Shown one piece after another: positions 21,873-30,826 of a DNA stretch of 64,000 nucleotides. The notes under the pieces are model-generated. The model was given only the letters and a program-made list of their open reading frames with translations. It did no database searches and was not told the origin of the DNA. Numbering within the stretch: the first letter of the stretch is position 1; each line of letters begins with the position of its first letter. This DNA comes from Vulcanimicrobiota bacterium (GTDB lineage Bacteria > Vulcanimicrobiota > Vulcanimicrobiia > Vulcanimicrobiales > Vulcanimicrobiaceae), in contig CAVRQT010000002.1 of NCBI GenBank assembly GCA_963723515.1, forward strand, positions 608,001-672,000. The letters run 5' to 3'. The position numbers and the translations under genes were made by a program.

Positions 21873-22730
21873 CTAGCGGCGGGAACGTCTGCGCCGGCGA
21901 TTGCGCCGCGAGCTCGAGCCGTTCGGACTCGGCTTCAATTTGACCGGCGTTTCAGGTTCTGCGGTGACGCCTTCAGTGATCGCATGCTCGGAATCCAAGA
22001 CCGAAAGCGGCTGATGGTATTTTCGCAAGAGATAGAGCTGCTGCGCCATCGTGAAAACGTTTAATGCGGTCCAGTAAAGGATCATCGCGGACGGCCAGCG
22101 CGCGCGAAATCCGAAATACGCAATCATCGCGGGCGAGAGAATCGCCATCATTTTCTGTGTGCGCGCCTGCGCCGGATCCGTCGCTGGCATAGTCGTGTAG
22201 CGCATGCTAAGGTACATCGTTACGATATAGACTAGCAGCAATATGAGGTCGGACTCTTTGAGGCTCGTGGCCATAATCGGCCAGTGGGCATGCGCATTGA
22301 TCGCATACGAGAGTGTCGACCCGATCCAAGCCCACGTCGCCGCAGCATACGCGCCAATGTGATCCTTATTTGTGACTGCGTAGTAGACGCTGATGATGAT
22401 CGGCATCTGTATAAGCAGCGGCAGACAACCCGCCATCGGATTGACGCCGGCTTCTTTATAGAGCGCCATCTGTTCGCGTTGCATCGCTTGCGGATCCGGC
22501 TTGCTCTTGTACTTCGCCTGAAGCGCTTTGATACGGGGCGCGATCTTCTGCATGCCGACCATCGTCTTGAATTGCGATGTGTTCAGCGGCCAAAATGCGA
22601 GCCGCACGAGCAGTGCAAAGATAATCAGGCTCCAACCGAGGTTGTGAACCGGGATGTTGATCGCGTTGATGATGTTGCCAACGAGCGTGATAAGCGGGAC
22701 GAGCGGGTTGGCGAACAACAAGATGTGCAA
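21873..22730 (-). CDS. yidC: membrane protein insertase YidC (short form)
   Basis: GWSLII, NPMAGCLPLLIQMPI, LYW, basic C-terminal tail. Confidence 0.95.
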   Translation of the reverse strand: MHILLFANPLVPLITLVGNIINAINIPVHNLGWSLIIFALLVRLAFWPLNTSQFKTMVGMQKIAPRIKALQAKYKSKPDPQAMQREQMALYKEAGVNPMAGCLPLLIQMPIIISVYYAVTNKDHIGAYAAATWAWIGSTLSYAINAHAHWPIMATSLKESDLILLLVYIVTMYLSMRYTTMPATDPAQARTQKMMAILSPAMIAYFGFRARWPSAMILYWTALNVFTMAQQLYLLRKYHQPLSVLDSEHAITEGVTAEPETPVKLKPSPNGSSSRRNRRRRRSRR

Positions 22731-22764
22731 GTAAGAGATTCCTTAGCGTAGGCGGCGCAACAGG

Positions 22765-22974
22765 TTAGGGCACGGGGTCAAAACCGCTCGGACCCCACGG
22801 GTGACACCGAAGCAGTCGCCCGGCGGCAAGCGATACTCCGCGAATTGCACCGTGTTTCGCGATTGCCTGGGCGGCGTACTGCGAACACGTGGGCTCGAAG
22901 CGGCAGGCGCTGGGCAAGAGTGGTGAGATCAGCAGCTTGTATCCACGCAGAATTGCCATAAGCAAAGATCTCAT
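22765..22974 (-). CDS. yidD: membrane protein insertion efficiency factor
   Basis: [29 protein letters not shown]. Confidence 0.96.
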
Positions 22975-23297
22975 CGCATGCCCTGCACAGCATGCATCAA
23001 TTCAATTTTCAGTTGCTCGAACTGCGCCCCGGCCGCCGCAGGCCGGGCCTCGATCAGAAGGCGCTGCGGCAAGCTCCCTTGGCGCGAGATTTCATCGAGG
23101 ATCGCTAAGAGACGGCGGCGCACGCGATTGCGGGTCACGGCATTCCCGACGGAGCGGGCCGTCGAGATTCCGACCAGCGCCTGGCCCAGGGGAGAGTCGG
23201 CACGATAGACCGTGAGTGCGCCGGTTGCCGTTCGCCGGCCAGCGCGGCGCAGTCGCGAGAAGTCGCCGCGGCGCCGCAGGCTGGCAAACGTTCGCAT
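22971..23297 (-). CDS. rnpA: ribonuclease P protein component
   Basis: [17 protein letters not shown] motif; synteny. Confidence 0.93.
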
Positions 23298-23431
23298 CAG
23301 ACCGCTAGGCGCTTGCGCCCTTTTCGCCGGCGTGCCGAAATCACGCGTCGTCCGTTCTTCGTCGCCATCCGCTTCAAGAAGCCGTGCACCCGTTTGCGGC
23401 GGCGGTTGTGCGGCTGAAAAGTGCGCTTCAT
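23297..23431 (-). CDS. rpmH: 50S ribosomal protein L34 (not in the ORF track)
   Basis: Manual translation [44 protein letters not shown]. Confidence 0.97.
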
Positions 23432-23432
23432 G

Positions 23433-23632
23433 CTAGAAGGCGCTCCGCTCTAAGCGCAGCTTGTCCTGAGCGCCGTCGAAGGACGCCCCCCAGCCGAGCT
23501 GGGGCCCCCCGGCCATAGCTCCCTCACGCGTGACGACCCGCCACGATTCCCCGCGGGGTCGCTTAACTAACATCATAAACCTCCACAGCTCCCGCACGAT
23601 CATCGGCACGCCAACCTCGCGAGGTCGCATAA
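23433..23632 (-). repeat. composite leader element, copy 1 (upstream of rpmH)
   Basis: Same modules and overall length as 28728-28926; contains a 65-codon ORF at 23433-23630. Confidence 0.85.
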
Positions 23633-23689
23633 ACTAGCATACACTAATGGAAAGAGGCGGCCGCTTCGCGCGGCCGCATACAGCCACCT

Positions 23690-23719
23690 AGTATAGGGGT
23701 CCGCGTCAGCAAGCGTCAA
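23690..23719 (-). promoter_or_regulatory. sigma70-type promoter for the rpmH operon
   Basis: Minus strand TTGACG-18 nt-TATACT. Confidence 0.7.
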
Positions 23720-23724
23720 GGCCG

Positions 23725-23900
23725 CTTTCCACACGTGTGGACAACGCTGTGGACAACGGTCGGTTTGGTGCGTGACATACGGTGTCGGAAGGCGCATGAA
23801 CAGTACGTTATCGCGCATGTCAAGAGGCAAAAGCGGCCTGCGAAAAATGTTTGTTTCGGGCGATAAAACCGTCATTTTCGGGCTGTGGATAAGTGGATAA
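23725..23900. promoter_or_regulatory. DnaA-box cluster upstream of dnaA
   Basis: CTTTCCACA 23725, TGTGGACAA 23736 and 23748, perfect TGTGGATAA 23884, AGTGGATAA 23892. Confidence 0.85.
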
Positions 23901-24030
23901 ATCCGTGCAAAAAACCCGCAGGATACGCCCCTGAAAGCGCAAACGTTTGCGCTCCGCTGCGACGGTTCATTAACGTCAAAGCCTTAAGAACTCGGCGCGC
24001 AAATACTTTCAAAGGACGGTACCTCCGGCT

Positions 24031-25393
24031 ATGGCGCTTGCGTTCAGCAACTCCGACATTTCGAATGAGCTGTGGCAATCTGCGCTCGTCGCATTAGAGC
24101 AGCGCTTTTCCAAACCGGTCTACGAGATGTGGATCAAGCCGATCAGATTCGTCAGTCTGTCGGGCAGCGAACTTACACTCGCCGTTCAATCAAACTTCGC
24201 CCGCGATTGGGTCGAGAACCGTCTAAAGCCACAGATTCGTGACATCCTTACCGAGGTGTTAGGGGCAGAACTCGAACTGCACTTCACGGTCGCCCCGGAC
24301 GCCCCCGACGCTGCGGCTGAGGCGCCGGCCCCGGAGCCCCAGCCCAAGGCCCCGGACGAGTACCGGCCCGGCAATCTGAACTCTCGCTACACCTTCGAAG
24401 AGTTTGTCGTCGGAAACAGCAACCGCTTTGCCCACGCGGCCGCGCAGGCAGTGGCCGTTACCCCGGCACGCGCCTACAACCCGCTCTTTATCTATGGCGG
24501 CGTCGGCCTCGGGAAGACGCATTTGATGCATGCGATCGGCCATCGTGTCATGCAAGAGAATCGGAGCGCGAACGTCGTCTATGTTTCAAGCGAGAAGTTT
24601 ACCAACGAATTCATCATCGCGATCAAAAACAACCAGACGCCGGAGTTTCGCAACAAGTACCGCCATGTCGACGTGCTGCTGATCGACGACATCCAATTCC
24701 TCGAAGGCAAAGAGCAGACGCAAGAAGAGTTCTTTCATACCTTCAACTCGCTGCACGAGTCCGGGCGGCAGCTCGTGATCTCGAGCGACCGTCCACCCAA
24801 AGAAATCCAAACGCTCGAGAATCGTTTGCGCTCGCGATTCGAATGGGGTTTGCTGACCGATATTCAATCGCCGGACTTAGAGACACGCGAAGCGATCTTG
24901 CGCAAGAAAGCGGAATCAGAAAAGGTTCCGGTTCCCGACGAAATCACAACGTTCATCGCCCGCGTTATTCCTTCGAACATTCGCGAACTTGAAGGCGCAT
25001 TGATTCGCGTCGTTGCCTTCGCATCGCTGACCAAATCCGCGATCACGTTGGAGCTTGCAACCGAAGTGCTCAAGAGTGCCGTGGCACAAGTTCCGTTGCG
25101 TCGCGTTACGATTCTGCTTGATTAAAGAGCGCGTCTCTCGCGCCCACGGCCTGACCGTAAAAGAGATGGATTACCAGCGCCGCGATCAGCGATTAGCAGC
25201 GCCGCGCCAGATCGCCATGTACATCGCGCGCGAGCTCACCGACTGCTCTTTGCCGCAGATTGCCCGCGAGTTCGGTAAGAAAGATCATACGACGGTGATG
25301 TACGCCTATAACAAAGTTAAGGATCAGATGCAACGCGACGAGGCGTACCGCAACAAGGTTCGCTCGCTGATCACGCTGTGCCAAAACGAGTGA
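24031..25393 (+). CDS. dnaA: chromosomal replication initiator DnaA, apparent frameshift near 25117
   Basis: [34 protein letters not shown]; domain IV PRQIAMY...KDHTTV in the next frame. Confidence 0.97.
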
Positions 25394-25635
25394 TCATCGC
25401 CCTCCACAATTTCGGTTACAAGGCCTATACGAAAACTGCGGATAACGGCGCCTTGGACGCCGGGCGGGTAAAAGTGCAGAGCTCACCGCGACATCTGCAC
25501 AGTTTGTCCGAACCGAAAGTCCAGCGGCGGCGCGGTATCGGGCACTTGTACGCAGAATACACCGCCTTACTACTATAGACCGTTACTCATTTATTTATAT
25601 CTGGAAAAACGGCGCAGTTTAAAAACGGTGGATGA
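25394..25635. other. probable oriC unwinding region (dnaA-dnaN intergenic)
   Basis: Degenerate DnaA boxes (25400, 25437, 25493, 25546, 25555), TTACTACTAT trio-like run and an AT-rich tract at 25583-25625; gene orientation switches across this region. Confidence 0.75.
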
Positions 25636-26751
25636 ATGAAGTTCACGTGTAACACTAAGGACATCTCGGCCGCCGTCGGCGCGGCAAGCAAGGTCGTCAA
25701 CGCGCACACGACGGTTCCGATCCTCTCAAACGTGCTGTTGACGGCCAATGGTGAGCGCATATCGGTGCGCGCGACGGATCTCGAACTGACGCTCGAGCAC
25801 GCTTTTCCGGCGGAAATATCGGAGCCGGGCAGCGTGACGGTGCCGGCGCGGCTTTTCTCCGGCTATCTCGGAAATCTGCCGCCGGGACTGCTCGAGCTCA
25901 AAGGCACGCCGACACGCGCGACCGTCAAATGCGAGCGTTCGAACTACGATTTTCACGCGTTGCCGGCCGACGAATACCCGCCGCTTCCCTCCGCGCAAAA
26001 GGGCCAGACATTTACGATCTCCGCGAAGCGCTTTCGTGCCGGCGTCGCCGGCACGATCTTTGCCGCCTCCAGCGAGGAAGCGCGCGGCGCCGTCTTGATG
26101 GGGACGCTGCTTGAAGTCGATGGCGACTCACTGACGATGGTCGCCACCGACGGCTACCGCCTTGCGAAGTTTCAAACGAATTTGGAGAGCGGCATCTCCG
26201 GTGCCGAAAAATACATCATCCCCTCGCGCGCTCTCGCTGAGGCGGCACGCAACCTTGGCGCAACCGACACGATAACGATCAGCGCGCTCGGTGCACAGAA
26301 CAATCAGCTGGCGGTCGCAGCGGGAGACACGTCGATCATCGTGCGGCTCGTCGACGGGCAGTATCCGAATTACGGGCAGGTTATTCCCGAAAAATTCGAT
26401 CGCTCGTGCGCCGTCAATACGGCGCAATTGATTGCCGGACTCAAACGCGCGGAGTTAGTGGCCGGCGATCGCGCTTCGATGGTCAAGCTCGCGATCTCGA
26501 ATCAGACACTGATTCTCACGGCGTCATCCGACATCGCCGGCAACGCCTACGAGGAACTGGAAGTCGAGCAAACCGGTGAGGACTTAACGATCGCCTTTAA
26601 CGCGCGCTATCTCGTCGAGATTCTCAACCACATCGAAAGCCCGCAGACCGTCATGGAGTTCTTGGGTCCGCTCTCGCCGACGGCGATCAAACCGCAAGAA
26701 CAATCGGAGGATGGCACGCAGCTGTATGTCTTGATGCCGCTGCGGCAGTAA
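25636..26751 (+). CDS. dnaN: DNA polymerase III beta clamp
   Basis: PILSNVLL, ATDLE, VATDGYRL, GQYPNY, FNARY, VLMPLR. Confidence 0.97.
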   Translation: MKFTCNTKDISAAVGAASKVVNAHTTVPILSNVLLTANGERISVRATDLELTLEHAFPAEISEPGSVTVPARLFSGYLGNLPPGLLELKGTPTRATVKCERSNYDFHALPADEYPPLPSAQKGQTFTISAKRFRAGVAGTIFAASSEEARGAVLMGTLLEVDGDSLTMVATDGYRLAKFQTNLESGISGAEKYIIPSRALAEAARNLGATDTITISALGAQNNQLAVAAGDTSIIVRLVDGQYPNYGQVIPEKFDRSCAVNTAQLIAGLKRAELVAGDRASMVKLAISNQTLILTASSDIAGNAYEELEVEQTGEDLTIAFNARYLVEILNHIESPQTVMEFLGPLSPTAIKPQEQSEDGTQLYVLMPLRQ

Positions 26752-26767
26752 AGCGTCCGAAGCGATC

Positions 26768-27871
26768 CTGCGCCTGAACCACGTCGCGCTTTCGAATTTA
26801 CGAAACTACTCGAATTTGGAGCTCGAGCCGCAGCCGGGCTTAAATGTCTTTATCGGTGAGAACGCGCAAGGCAAGAGTAATCTGCTCGAAGCGATCGCGC
26901 TGCTCGGCACCGGAAAATCGTTTCGCACGAGCCGGGAAGCGGATCTGATCAAGCACGGGTTGTCGATCGCGTCCATTTCGGGGGAAGCGCAGATGCGAGC
27001 CGGTACGGTTCGCTTGAGTTGCACGATTGCGAACACCGGTCGTGGCATTCGCAAAACCTATACACTAAACGGCGAGCCGGTCCGCTACGCGCGGTTCCTC
27101 GGCTCGGCAAAAATCGTGACCTTCACACCCTGGGATCTCCAACTCGTTACCGGCGCGCCGAGCCTGCGACGCGCGATGCTGAACGGTGCTCTCTCGCAAG
27201 CTCAGCCGATGTACTACAGCCATCTTTTGCGTTATCAAAAGGCACTCGCGCAAAAGGCGGCATTGCTGCGTGGCGCGATCGAACCCGACGCGGAACTCAT
27301 ACGCGTATATAACCAAACGCTCGTCGATCACGGTGCCGGATTGATGGCGGCGCGAGCGCAGTTTGTCGAAGCGCTCAATACGCCTGCGCACAATGTCTAT
27401 CGCAAGTGGACGGGCGGCGACGAGCGCTTAACGCTATCCTACGAGCCGAACGTGCCCTTTGAGGCTCGCACCCAAGACGCGATCGAGGCGGCGTTACATG
27501 CGCGCTTGGCGGCGGTCGCGCAATTGGAAGCACAGCGGAAGATGTGCATCGCGGGGCCGCATCGCGATGACGTTACGCTCTTACTGGACGGCATGTCGCT
27601 GGCCGCGTTTGGTTCGCAAGGGCAGCATCGGATGGCGGTACTCGCACTCAAAGTTGCCGAATACATCGTCATGCAAGAGCGCGGCGCGGAAGCGCCATTG
27701 CTATTTCTCGACGACGTGCTTTCCGAATTGGATCATCGCCGCGCCGCGGCGTTCCTGAGCGGCATCGGCAATTACGAGCAGGCGTTCATGACGGCAACGA
27801 GCGTTCCAAACGGTATTCCGGCCGCGGCGCAATATCGGATCACGCAAGCGGCGCTGGAGCGCATCGCATGA
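26768..27871 (+). CDS. recF: DNA replication/repair protein RecF (probable CTG start)
   Basis: RLNHVALSNLRNY N-terminus, GENAQGKSNLLEAI, GPHRDD, GSQGQ, LDDVLSELD. Confidence 0.95.
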   Translation: MRLNHVALSNLRNYSNLELEPQPGLNVFIGENAQGKSNLLEAIALLGTGKSFRTSREADLIKHGLSIASISGEAQMRAGTVRLSCTIANTGRGIRKTYTLNGEPVRYARFLGSAKIVTFTPWDLQLVTGAPSLRRAMLNGALSQAQPMYYSHLLRYQKALAQKAALLRGAIEPDAELIRVYNQTLVDHGAGLMAARAQFVEALNTPAHNVYRKWTGGDERLTLSYEPNVPFEARTQDAIEAALHARLAAVAQLEAQRKMCIAGPHRDDVTLLLDGMSLAAFGSQGQHRMAVLALKVAEYIVMQERGAEAPLLFLDDVLSELDHRRAAAFLSGIGNYEQAFMTATSVPNGIPAAAQYRITQAALERIA

Positions 27872-28710
27872 GCTTGCTGCGGCTTTCAGATGCTTGCCGT
27901 AATTGGGCACCGCTGCAGGATACGCATGTCCAGCCGCTGGTCGCGATTGCTGCGGCGTGGCCGGCGATCGTAGGAACGCAGGTCGCCGCAAATTCACAGC
28001 CTCTTGAAATACGCGGTGATACGCTGATCATCGCAACGCGCTCGCATTCATGGACGCACCAGCTCAGTTTCATGACCGAACAGGTCATCGCCGCCATTAC
28101 GCGAGATGCGCCCGTCGCAAAAATCGAACGCGTGCGTTTCCGTGTCGGGCGCGTTACGCCGGCGCGTGCGACTGCCGTGCGCCATACCCAAAGACGTCCT
28201 CAGCCAAAGGGGCTTCCCGAAGATCGGCCACCGGTAAAGTCGCTAAACGACGTGCTGACGCGCTTTCGTGAAGACGTTCGATCCGCGCGCGAAGCGCGGA
28301 TCGCAAGTGGGGCGCGGCTATGCCGTGGTTGCGGCATTGCGATGGCGCAAGGGCGGCCCGCATGCTGTGCGCCATGTTTGCAAGCCGAAACCGACCAACG
28401 GCATCGAGCGGTCGCGCGGCTGCTCTTTGAGGCGCCGTGGCTTGGCTTTGCCGGCATCTCAGCACTGGTCGACGGCCTGACCGAACGTGATTACGGAGTC
28501 GTACGCCTGAAGTTGTTGCGCCGGTGGTGGGAGACGCTTTTGAAAGCGCAGCGGGCCGGGCGGCTTTCACCGGATCGTCGCGAGAGATTGATCGCCAGTT
28601 CTTACGTTATCTTAAGGAGCGGGCTCGATCCCGAGCACATCGTTCCGCCGGTCGTGCGCAATTTGCTCGGTGACGAACTGCACGACTTAATCTACGGAAT
28701 CTCGAACTAA
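27868..28710 (+). CDS. DUF721/DciA-like protein with zinc ribbon and C-terminal extension
   Basis: WPAIVGTQVAANSQP...W..QLSF...IERVRFRVG pattern; located between recF and gyrB; CRGC...CAPC. Confidence 0.8.
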   Translation: MSLLRLSDACRNWAPLQDTHVQPLVAIAAAWPAIVGTQVAANSQPLEIRGDTLIIATRSHSWTHQLSFMTEQVIAAITRDAPVAKIERVRFRVGRVTPARATAVRHTQRRPQPKGLPEDRPPVKSLNDVLTRFREDVRSAREARIASGARLCRGCGIAMAQGRPACCAPCLQAETDQRHRAVARLLFEAPWLGFAGISALVDGLTERDYGVVRLKLLRRWWETLLKAQRAGRLSPDRRERLIASSYVILRSGLDPEHIVPPVVRNLLGDELHDLIYGISN

Positions 28711-28720
28711 AAAAGAAGAT

Positions 28721-28926
28721 ATGTCACTTACGCGACCCCACGGGGAATGCTGCTTCGCGAATTATCGTGAGGGAGCGAAGAATAGAATTGTTGTTACGCG
28801 ACCCCGCGGGGAATCGAGGCGCTTCAAAAATGGTGATGGAGCGATAGTCTTGGGCGCCCCAGCTCGGCTGGGGGGCGCCCTTCGACGCGCTCAGGACAAG
28901 CTGCGCTTGGAGCGGAGCGCCTTGTA

Positions 28927-28927
<1 letters not shown>
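28721..28927 (+). repeat. composite leader element, copy 2 (upstream of gyrB)
   Basis: Shares modules with 23433-23632; contains a 68-codon ORF whose TAA overlaps the gyrB ATG. Confidence 0.85.

Positions 28928-30826
<1,899 letters not shown>

Follow-up and report, generated by a model that had tools for sequence, protein, structure and literature searches.

Very few known bacterial repeat families sit exactly on start codons and replace the ribosome-binding site (RBS) of the host gene, and the main example is the MIRU of mycobacteria. MIRU were reportedly the subject of a study by Supply et al. in 1997; to our knowledge, the mechanism by which they spread is still unknown after almost 30 years. 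ERIC/IRU and the pneumococcal BOX are small, structured, transcribed intergenic repeats, and BOX is modular, with the form A-Bn-C. In the passages that two papers devote to them, MIRU are transcribed repeats of operon intergenic regions, with an internal open reading frame (ORF) that overlaps the stop and start codons of the neighbouring genes (PMC12548453, PMC3184786). The corresponding parts of the second paper also describe REP repeats, as well as the REP2 repeats of Neisseria and the IR repeats of Borrelia, which lie immediately upstream of genes and carry a promoter, an RBS and an ATG (PMC3184786).

Here we describe a repeat element from the uncultured phylum Eremiobacterota (WPS-2). Two of its copies, one before rpmH and one before gyrB, lie in a 64,000-nucleotide stretch of contig CAVRQT010000002.1 (the window). 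A previous sequence-only reading of this DNA had noticed the pair, and had proposed either a cis-regulatory RNA family or a non-autonomous element directed at translation-initiation regions, to which it would bring the RBS. We favour, at a probability of roughly two in three, a lineage-specific, non-autonomous, MIRU-like mobile intercistronic element that supplies an RBS and preserves translational coupling. The observations behind this reading are the insertion of the element relative to a genome of the same genus, three covarying helices on the sense strand, a GGAG that lies 9-11 nt before the start codon, and a reading frame that ends on or next to that start. In the open-access full-text literature, we found no account of such repeats in Eremiobacterota, and nothing closer than the review of MIRU.

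Copies at start codons and their empty sites

The two window copies (Table 1) align over their full 199 nt with a mean column identity of 83%. The X-X-Y architecture that had been drawn from the sequence is thus confirmed, together with its limits at both loci: the X units start at 23632 and 23566 on the minus strand and at 28728 and 28794 on the plus strand, with a period of 66 nt at rpmH and gyrB alike. The four differences that had been counted within Y are three substitutions and one single-base indel. Each copy runs directly to its gene: the rpmH ATG (23431-23429) and the gyrB ATG (28927) adjoin the 3' ends of their elements. The rpmH product was identified as Ribosomal_L34 (Pfam E=1.9e-22) and gyrB by its HATPase_c domain (Pfam); the gyrB copy is bounded on its 5' side by dciA, whose stop codon lies at 28708-28710. 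The promoter-like site of rpmH lies outside and upstream of the element, which places the element in the 5' untranslated region of this gene. The view that the two copies lie on opposite sides of oriC is reasonable: of the 10 DnaA-box-like matches in the window (4.5 expected, with what we take to be the DnaA box consensus), 4 cluster between rpmH and dnaA, so that the copies, which point in opposite directions, have the likely origin between them. The GC skew of the window was too noisy to add to this.

We found nine full loci by BLASTN and nhmmer in the genome that holds the window (G000; 2.11 Mb, 4 contigs), with E values from 1e-8 to 2e-42, well beyond what chance would give. The element is therefore present before both rpmH and gyrB, as first described, but is not specific to them. 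With the flanking genes named by Pfam, the other copies lie between pheS and pheT, between a helix-turn-helix (HTH) protein gene and nifU, between a HisS-like gene and the gene for a biotin-carrier protein (BCCP), before atpA, between rplD and rplW, between infB and rbfA, and between sucD and a TonB-receptor-like gene, which in this last case begins 49 nt further on. Eight of the nine adjoin a start codon, and in eight the 3' end ..GAGCGGAGCGCC is followed by 5-8 nt and then by ATG, GTG or TTG. Five begin 0-6 nt from the stop codon of the upstream gene, and the gyrB copy begins 13 nt after it. A single X precedes Y at seven loci; the rpmH and gyrB copies are the only two of the form X-X-Y(long). 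Together, these data describe a repeat of ~125 nt with shorter, X-only forms of 66 nt and longer X-X-Y and long-Y forms, which lies in sense orientation directly against a gene start and in many cases occupies the stop/start junction of an operon.

A second genome of the same genus (G001, 77% complete) contains a single reduced copy, before a major facilitator superfamily (MFS) transporter gene. All three of the G000 sites that we checked in this genome (pheT, gyrB and rpmH) are empty, with breakpoints at the start codon; the rpmH and gyrB leaders, in other words, both have orthologues without the element. Between pheS and pheT, G001 reads ..CAGCTCGCGTGAAAGTTCCG.., with a GTGA stop/start overlap, and G000 has 131 nt more. 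Between dciA and gyrB it reads ..AACTAATAAATATGGAA.., with gyrB following TAATAAAT, and G000 has 212 nt more. Upstream of rpmH, G001 shares the TTGACG..TATACT promoter-like site and the 5' hairpin with G000, is free of the element, and continues ..TTTAGGAGCACCCTCGTGAAG, with its own AGGAG located 8 nt before GTG; G000 has 213 nt more at this site, and the AGGAG seen in G001 is lost. The length of the protein N-terminus is kept at all three sites. Outgroup genomes favour insertion in G000 over three precise losses in G001: no copy is present anywhere in the complete genomes G005 and G007, the gyrB site of G016 spans just 59 nt, and near gyrB in G014 there is no match to R1, the covariance model that we built from the element.

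Table 1. Features of the two window copies and their surroundings. Positions are those of the window unless a contig of G000 is named.
Feature	Position	Strand	Evidence or remarks
rpmH copy, X1-X2-Y(long), 199 nt	23434..23632	-	rpmH 5' leader; nhmmer E=4.5e-39 (X2-Y), covariance model 118 bits
rpmH X1 unit, 66 nt	23567..23632	-	divergent X, then GGAGG and TTTATGATG; without Y hairpin; weak nhmmer match, E=7.7
rpmH X2	23518..23566	-	helix P1 (GCGAC../..GAGGGAGC, tandem G.A) around CCCCGCGGGGAAT and variable loop; CG/GC/AU exchanges of P1 pairs in alignment
rpmH Y hairpin CCCCAGC-TCG-GCTGGGG	23488..23504	-	helix 4: 96.8% paired, 4 pairs with double changes; inverted repeat
rpmH GGAG (Shine-Dalgarno-like)	23443..23446	-	3' strand of terminal helix, 11 nt 5' of ATG; conserved as GCGGAGCGCC in 102-copy consensus
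rpmH mini-ORF, open, 65 codons through element	23433..23630	-	ends TAG-C-ATG at rpmH start
Promoter-like TTGACG-18-TATACT	23690..23719	-	upstream of rpmH element; 10/12 matches
gyrB copy, X1-X2-Y(long), 199 nt	28728..28926	+	nhmmer E=1.3e-40, covariance model 125.8 bits
gyrB X1 unit, 66 nt	28728..28793	+	X then AAGAATAGAATTG, without Y hairpin; E=1.3e-7
gyrB X2	28794..28842	+	alignment, structure prediction
gyrB Y hairpin CCCCAGC-TCG-GCTGGGG	28857..28873	+	covarying helix; inverted repeat
gyrB nested short hairpin, the long-Y insert (CCCTTCGAC..GCTCAGGACAAGCTGCG)	28878..28905	+	fragment of separate abundant repeat family
gyrB GGAG in 3' helix	28914..28917	+	9 nt 5' of gyrB ATG
gyrB mini-ORF, open, 68 codons	28721..28927	+	ATG 11 nt 3' of dciA stop; ends TAATG on gyrB start
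DnaA-box-like sites (4)	23736..23900		between rpmH and dnaA; putative oriC
Second repeat family, example sites	23455..23483; 28878..28905; C3:373715-374300; C2:752300-752630		

RNA structure, start-codon register and mini-ORF

RNAalifold predicted three helices from the nine G000 copies. Helix P1, of 5-7 bp, closes X around CCC-NN-GGGGAAU and a variable loop; the Y-core hairpin has the form CCCC..GGGG; and the terminal stem, GGCGC / GGA / GCY-URG-RGC / GGA / GCGCC, holds the GGAG in its 3' strand. P1 is fully compensated in the atpA and rbfA copies (GGAGCGC/GCGCUCC and GGGGCGC/GCGCCCC). We aligned 102 matches from other genomes to R1 (alignment A3, which, like the family tally and the pooled counts below, includes four genomes flagged as unpublished: G020, G022, G045 and G046). 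Standard pairs occupied 96.4% of the 1986 cells of A3, against 38-63% when the 3' partners were slid, in an alignment that is fitted to the structure of the model and so favours pairing counts. Both sides had changed in 13 of the 21 pairs (278 cells), and the observed score was reached by none of 500 shuffles. A blind mutual-information scan of A3 returned the three known helices as its top well-paired pairs, and gave no convincing helix or pseudoknot beyond them; to read the G-rich motifs as K-turn-like or as a G-quadruplex would be speculative. The single-stranded motifs conserved across genera are CCCUCGGGGAAU, UGGGGG, and two GGA that face each other in the 3' internal loop, one of which is the Shine-Dalgarno (SD) sequence.

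Covariation of this strength, single-stranded motifs kept across genera, and a fixed position relative to the start codon would also be expected of a cis-regulatory leader RNA, in which one trans-acting factor, a protein or small molecule reporting growth state, opens and closes the SD helix and spread is secondary. Consistent with this, most of the genes downstream relate to growth (those for ribosomal proteins, aminoacyl-tRNA synthetases, ATP synthase, Nuo and gyrase). We nevertheless consider such a leader unlikely. A cmscan of positions 22500-30000 with Rfam 15 at E<=10 gave no match on either element, in line with the earlier failure to recognise a described riboswitch, T-box or ribosomal-protein leader; the sole match, sR-tMet at 28383-28442 (E=6; 20 bits, where the gathering score is 50), is unrelated. 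Similarly, a tRNA-like element was rejected, as ARAGORN found 0 tRNA or tmRNA genes in 23300-29100.

The downstream genes do not form a coherent regulon. Of 75 downstream proteins scanned, 62 were named, with functions in translation, respiration, replication, chemotaxis, cell wall and catabolism. Those related to translation are L3, L6, L14, S3, S19, PheT, ValS, AlaS and LysS; others are AtpA, DnaJ, SMC, GyrA, GyrB, Nuo subunits, AccC, PurC/D, ArgR, NifU, CheA and FliG, and further targets are a polyhydroxybutyrate (PHB) depolymerase, a gentisate dioxygenase, a peptide permease and a glycosyltransferase. It is the presence of CheA, FliG, PHB depolymerase, gentisate dioxygenase, the permease and the glycosyltransferase among these targets that argues against a regulon. 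Moreover, the element is missing from 34 of the 61 genera of the family, complete genomes among them, and the same-genus G001 has only one copy, with empty sites at rpmH, gyrB and pheT. Stem sequences are common to the copies within a genome, a likeness for which a ligand-binding RNA has no need. Finally, we saw no locus-specific pairing of the X loop: for 105 copies, the duplex energies with the flanks of the same copy and with those of other copies were nearly equal (downstream, -17.75 vs -17.57, p=0.62; upstream, -17.69 vs -17.16, p=0.12), and a locus-specific antisense role was rejected. Thus, the conserved, covarying leader structure of the proposed RNA family stands, but its targets form no regulon and its sites are polymorphic for insertion, and that proposal now holds weakly.

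To tabulate the distance to the start codon, we pooled 164 distinct copies (the best match per genome, 20 copies from G014, the loci of a pattern scan, and those of G000); the scan pattern held no start codon. In 95 of the 164, the first long same-strand ORF starts 5-9 nt after ..AGCGCC, with a mode of 6 nt (n=56). Controls gave 8-9%: the test was passed by 13 of 160 when applied to the other end on the opposite strand, and by 73 of 820 randomly chosen positions within the same loci. A permissive test, which asked for a same-strand ORF start within 60 nt, was passed by 143 of 164 copies, and also by 98 of 160 and 565 of 820 controls; because these control values are high, the 5-9 nt class is the telling one. 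In about 30 further copies the distance to the start is 11-31 nt, and several of these starts have a separate SD. Orientation and distance are thus fixed across the genome and its relatives, and the random placement expected of an ordinary repeat was not what we found. These data, together with the three empty sites and the GGAG in the 3' helix, support the second of the two proposals, namely a non-autonomous element that inserts at translation-initiation regions and provides their RBS.

In most start-adjacent copies, a mini-ORF spans the element, with its stop codon directly before or overlapping the downstream start. We found a stop at -8..+1 of the start in 92 of the 95 start-adjacent copies, 40 of them as ATGA; in 77 of 95, this stop closes an ORF of 99 nt or more that has a start codon of its own, and the commonest lengths, 37-46 codons, equal that of the element. 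In G000, the stop codon of the upstream gene often shares bases with the ATG at the 5' edge (TAATG after pheS and infB, TGATG after rplD and the HisS-like gene), and in 32 of 57 cases with mini-ORFs of 99-200 nt the upstream stop lies no more than 5 nt from the mini-ORF start. The copy between the HisS-like and BCCP genes departs from this pattern: the frame from its 5' ATG closes after 14 codons, and the frame common to other copies has no ATG at its head and continues into the downstream gene. Of 117 frames whose end falls at the start codon, 95 stay open through the body of the element, compared with 72 of the 168 remaining frames; a Fisher test overstates the significance of this difference because the copies are related, and composition alone leaves about 40-60% of frames open.

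An open frame with a start and a stop through most copies raises the question of whether the element is instead a family of small protein genes, with a peptide of 40-68 amino acids as its functional product; in the G000 copy that precedes nifU, indels of -1 and +4 together keep the frame. We regard such a product as very improbable. The peptide is not conserved: its frame varies by subfamily (..TRPHGE..WGPQLGWGA.. vs ..GAPSGD..GGPSSAGGR..), the compensatory changes in the stems rewrite its residues, and its 5' start codon is not shared across genera. In addition, 27 nucleotides are identical in eight copies, with no synonymous variation. What is kept in the mini-ORF seems to be translatability, and not a peptide product.

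The preferred reading, a mobile element that keeps coupling intact, suggests how a copy could be tolerated at a gene start: it would act as a portable cassette for translation initiation. Where two genes of an operon meet, a ribosome that has completed the first would start again at the element's 5' ATG, which often overlaps the stop of that gene, and would translate through the element, melting its helices. Termination at the downstream start (ATGA, TAATG or TAA-ATG) would be followed by a fresh initiation at that codon. In this way the element would keep the coupling that an insertion would otherwise break, and the coupling of the GTGA overlap seen at the empty site of G001 would survive. 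In 5' leaders such as that of rpmH, where the native SD is lost, the role of RBS would fall to the GGAG, which the internal loop of the 3' helix leaves exposed. Such a mechanism would resemble the way in which the MIRU repeats of mycobacteria are thought to work.

Distribution, modular forms and spread

We found the element with R1 in 27 of the 61 genera of the window's family, G000 included, at 1-32 copies each; among the good-quality genomes of the family, 17 of 43 carry it. The highest copy numbers are those of G014 (32), G053 (19), G069 (15), G073 (11) and G075 (10). In a sample of the phylum, R1 matched 4 of 23 further genomes of the same family and none of 57 genomes from 19 other families. 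Judging from these matches, the element appears confined, as far as searched, to one family of uncultured soil-dwelling Eremiobacterota. A search of sequencing runs matched four soil DNA runs, with 0.04 of the words of the locus, and listed no RNA run. The pattern matches (at least 119 stretches) bear mostly Eremiobacterota, WPS-2 or Vulcanimicrobiota titles (Baltobacteraceae, Vulcanimicrobiaceae and others). A few contigs with the element are titled Binatia, Acidoferrum, Limnocylindria or Acidimicrobiaceae, namely L110, L123, L148 and L156 (DATNIC01), L143 and L159 (DATJOM01), L154 (DATJHK01) and L131 (CAVUZI01); they could be mislabelled or mis-binned metagenome-assembled genomes (MAGs), or could reflect real spread beyond Eremiobacterota.

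Copies group by genome and not by target. The nearest neighbour is a copy from the same genome for 9 of 9 copies in G000 and for 19 of 20 in G014 (20 of whose 32 copies were used for the clustering, as for the pooled set), and the atpA copies of G000, G014 and G041 are 60-67% alike. Mobility is argued by this clustering, the patchy distribution and the three empty sites taken together, with no mobilising enzyme found. Each of the rpmH and gyrB copies has the other as its nearest neighbour, at 82% identity; since they are also the only X-X-Y(long) copies, one was probably copied from the other.

Around the origin, the same two copies form inverted repeats, 82% identical, that enclose oriC-dnaA-dnaN-recF-dciA, and recombination between them could in principle invert this 5-kb oriC segment. 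Four of the nine copies (at atpA, the BCCP gene, rpmH and gyrB) lie inside 67 kb at the putative origin (G000:C2:570059-636926). The gene between recF and gyrB (27868-28710) encodes 280 amino acids, with a DciA domain at residues 20-91 only (Pfam E=2.2e-14) and no domain assigned to its long C-terminal part.

How the element moves bears on a further alternative: that it derives from a single-stranded-DNA element of the IS200/IS605 or REP/RAYT type (similar to PATE or REPIN), mobilised in trans by a Y1 HUH transposase and inserted 3' of a short target that contains ATG. The element is rich in hairpins, has neither terminal inverted repeats nor target-site duplications, is strand-specific, with NTG at both borders, and follows the orientation of the genes on both sides of oriC. 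Tandem whole-unit arrays also occur, in G006 (locus L040, C1:1216270-1216545; three units with a 123-nt period, before rplF) and in G045 (C108:3026-3272). The units of the G006 array, however, are joined without NTG, and the starts at filled sites (ATG, TTG) do not match the GTG of the empty sites as a simple target model would require. Nor was the expected enzyme found: Y1_Tnp/RAYT (PF01797) gave no match in five genomes (G000, G001, G014, G053 and G069), among them G014, which is 95% complete and holds 32 copies, while a control search matched 6 of 14 reference genomes, and the TnpB zinc-ribbon (PF07282) gave none in G000, G014, G053, G005 and G007, in assemblies that are 77-97% complete and so do not prove absence of Y1 or TnpB. 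We therefore judge this origin improbable. A classical miniature inverted-repeat transposable element was rejected for lack of terminal inverted repeats and of a target duplication beyond NTG.

The repeat itself is modular. Y is shared by the two window copies, as had been reported; its long form, however, owes an extra hairpin to a second repeat family, and five of the nine G000 copies are without this hairpin, which is found in the rpmH, gyrB, rplW and rbfA copies as a nested insert of 24-29 nt (CCTTCGAC..GCTCAGGACAAGC). This second, short family (..CTTCGAYGCTTCGAC-NNN-GCTCAGSRCAGGCTRAGCTCAGGGTGACA..) is the more abundant in G000, where ~50 sites fit a loose TTCGAC..GCTCAGGACAAGC-like pattern and some form tandem arrays. 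A degenerate unit lies directly 5' of the atpA copy (G000:C2:570187-570240), with a mini-hairpin GGCACC-GGGGAAC-GGTGCC followed by GGGGAGCGCC..ATG, so that the atpA locus, too, is a two-unit array. The X loop (16-20 nt; for example, window 28812-28832 and 23528-23548) differs in every copy, and only a weak ..YCG-AAUGAUGA tail is shared.

Several observations weigh against a mobile, RBS-supplying element, besides the cautions already attached to the pairing counts and to the open frames. First, no mobilising enzyme came to light: in addition to Y1_Tnp and TnpB, RVT_1 (reverse transcriptase) gave no match in the five genomes searched, and IS110 was present in one of five (G053), with none in G000 or G014; the searches covered these four families. 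Second, in agreement with the sequence-only reading, we found no terminal inverted repeats, those detected being internal stems, and no consistent target-site duplication beyond the NTG at both ends, the bases before the 5' and 3' NTG differing within copies. Third, when six copies were folded singly, their stability hardly exceeded that of shuffles (z +0.3 to -2.4). Fourth, the mini-ORF is absent or short in 18 of the 95 start-adjacent copies, and its 5' ATG gives way across genera to a consensus nanGgt, with ACG in many copies. Fifth, the stems and motifs are near-invariant within one genome, as in the 27 nt of Y that are identical in eight G000 copies, while the X loop drifts. Such a contrast is not predicted for an insertion that is purely selfish and decaying; it points to selection after insertion, as a regulatory RNA would have it, or to gene conversion. 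Finally, dnaA and gyrB both appear split into overlapping ORFs (24031-25125 and 25055-25393; 28927-29652 and 29543-30826), probably by single-base frameshifts that are long-read MAG assembly errors, and single-base indels in the G000 copies may therefore be assembly errors as well.

A 7-nt perfect inverted repeat, ATGCTAG/CTAGCAT, exactly flanks the rpmH copy (23430-23436 and 23634-23640), with no counterpart at gyrB; such a pair is at the level of chance, ~1-2 being expected in 241 nt.

A bolder form of the mobile-element reading, which we regard as doubtful, would dispense with a transposase altogether. The element would be an RNA-structured cassette that homes to start codons by some as yet undescribed mechanism and is kept by selection because the translation of an essential gene comes to depend on it; GGGGAAU, UGGGGG and the paired GGA loops would then be the site for a family-specific factor that mobilises the element or co-tunes the translation of dozens of housekeeping genes inside operons.

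Significance and comparison with described repeats

Our results describe a real and well-supported new repeat family, with more than 100 diverged copies and clear covariation, that appears to work like MIRU and is conserved in structure with unusual clarity. As a second, unrelated-looking family in an uncultured phylum, it offers an independent system in which to ask how such elements find start codons and stay harmless before essential genes such as rpmH, gyrB, pheT and atpA. It also affects the annotation of these MAGs, because the mini-ORFs will be annotated as proteins of hypothetical status, and many core genes would have their actual RBS within a repeat. In addition, the element would be a natural version of the 'bicistronic design' that synthetic biology uses for context-independent translation initiation.

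Among leader RNAs, the riboswitches and ribosomal-protein leaders of Rfam 15 share with the element a conserved, covarying 5' leader structure with the SD inside a helix. They differ from it in the points given above: the element matches no Rfam family, precedes heterogeneous genes at sites that are insertion-polymorphic within a genus, and has stems common to the copies of one genome.

Among repeats, BOX and the element are both modular, A-Bn-C in the one and X(n)-Y in the other. REP/BIME, ERIC/IRU and BOX are small, structured intergenic repeats that are transcribed, as the element presumably is; unlike the element, they are not known to keep a fixed register with the start codon or to supply an RBS. 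REPs are linked to RAYT Y1 transposases, and none was found with the element in five genomes. The Neisseria REP2 and Borrelia IR-A and IR-B repeats, compared here by their description in the relevant part of that source, carry a promoter (PMC3184786), whereas the promoter-like site of rpmH lies outside the element and many copies are internal to operons.

The closest likeness is to MIRU, as they are characterised in the relevant passages of their two descriptions (PMC12548453, PMC3184786). Both are short repeats (of the 40-100 bp class) that lie between the genes of operons, in regions that are transcribed in the case of MIRU and presumably also in that of the element, and point the same way as the genes on either side. 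In both, an internal ORF overlaps the neighbouring stop codon at one end and the neighbouring start codon at the other, the ATGA (-4) overlap included, and both have filled and empty sites between relatives, tandem units, G+C-rich internal inverted repeats, and no known transposase attached. The arrays of G006 and G045 are similar to MIRU loci in behaving like variable-number tandem repeats. The element differs in its copy number, which is lower (9 in G000, up to 32), and the tetranucleotide direct repeats given for MIRU in those passages were not seen in it. Unlike MIRU, it combines three helices, with strong covariation over the 27 genera, and a GGAG that is conserved 9-11 nt upstream of the start codon. 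The element belongs to another phylum, and we liken it to MIRU by function and description, claiming neither relatedness nor membership by descent.

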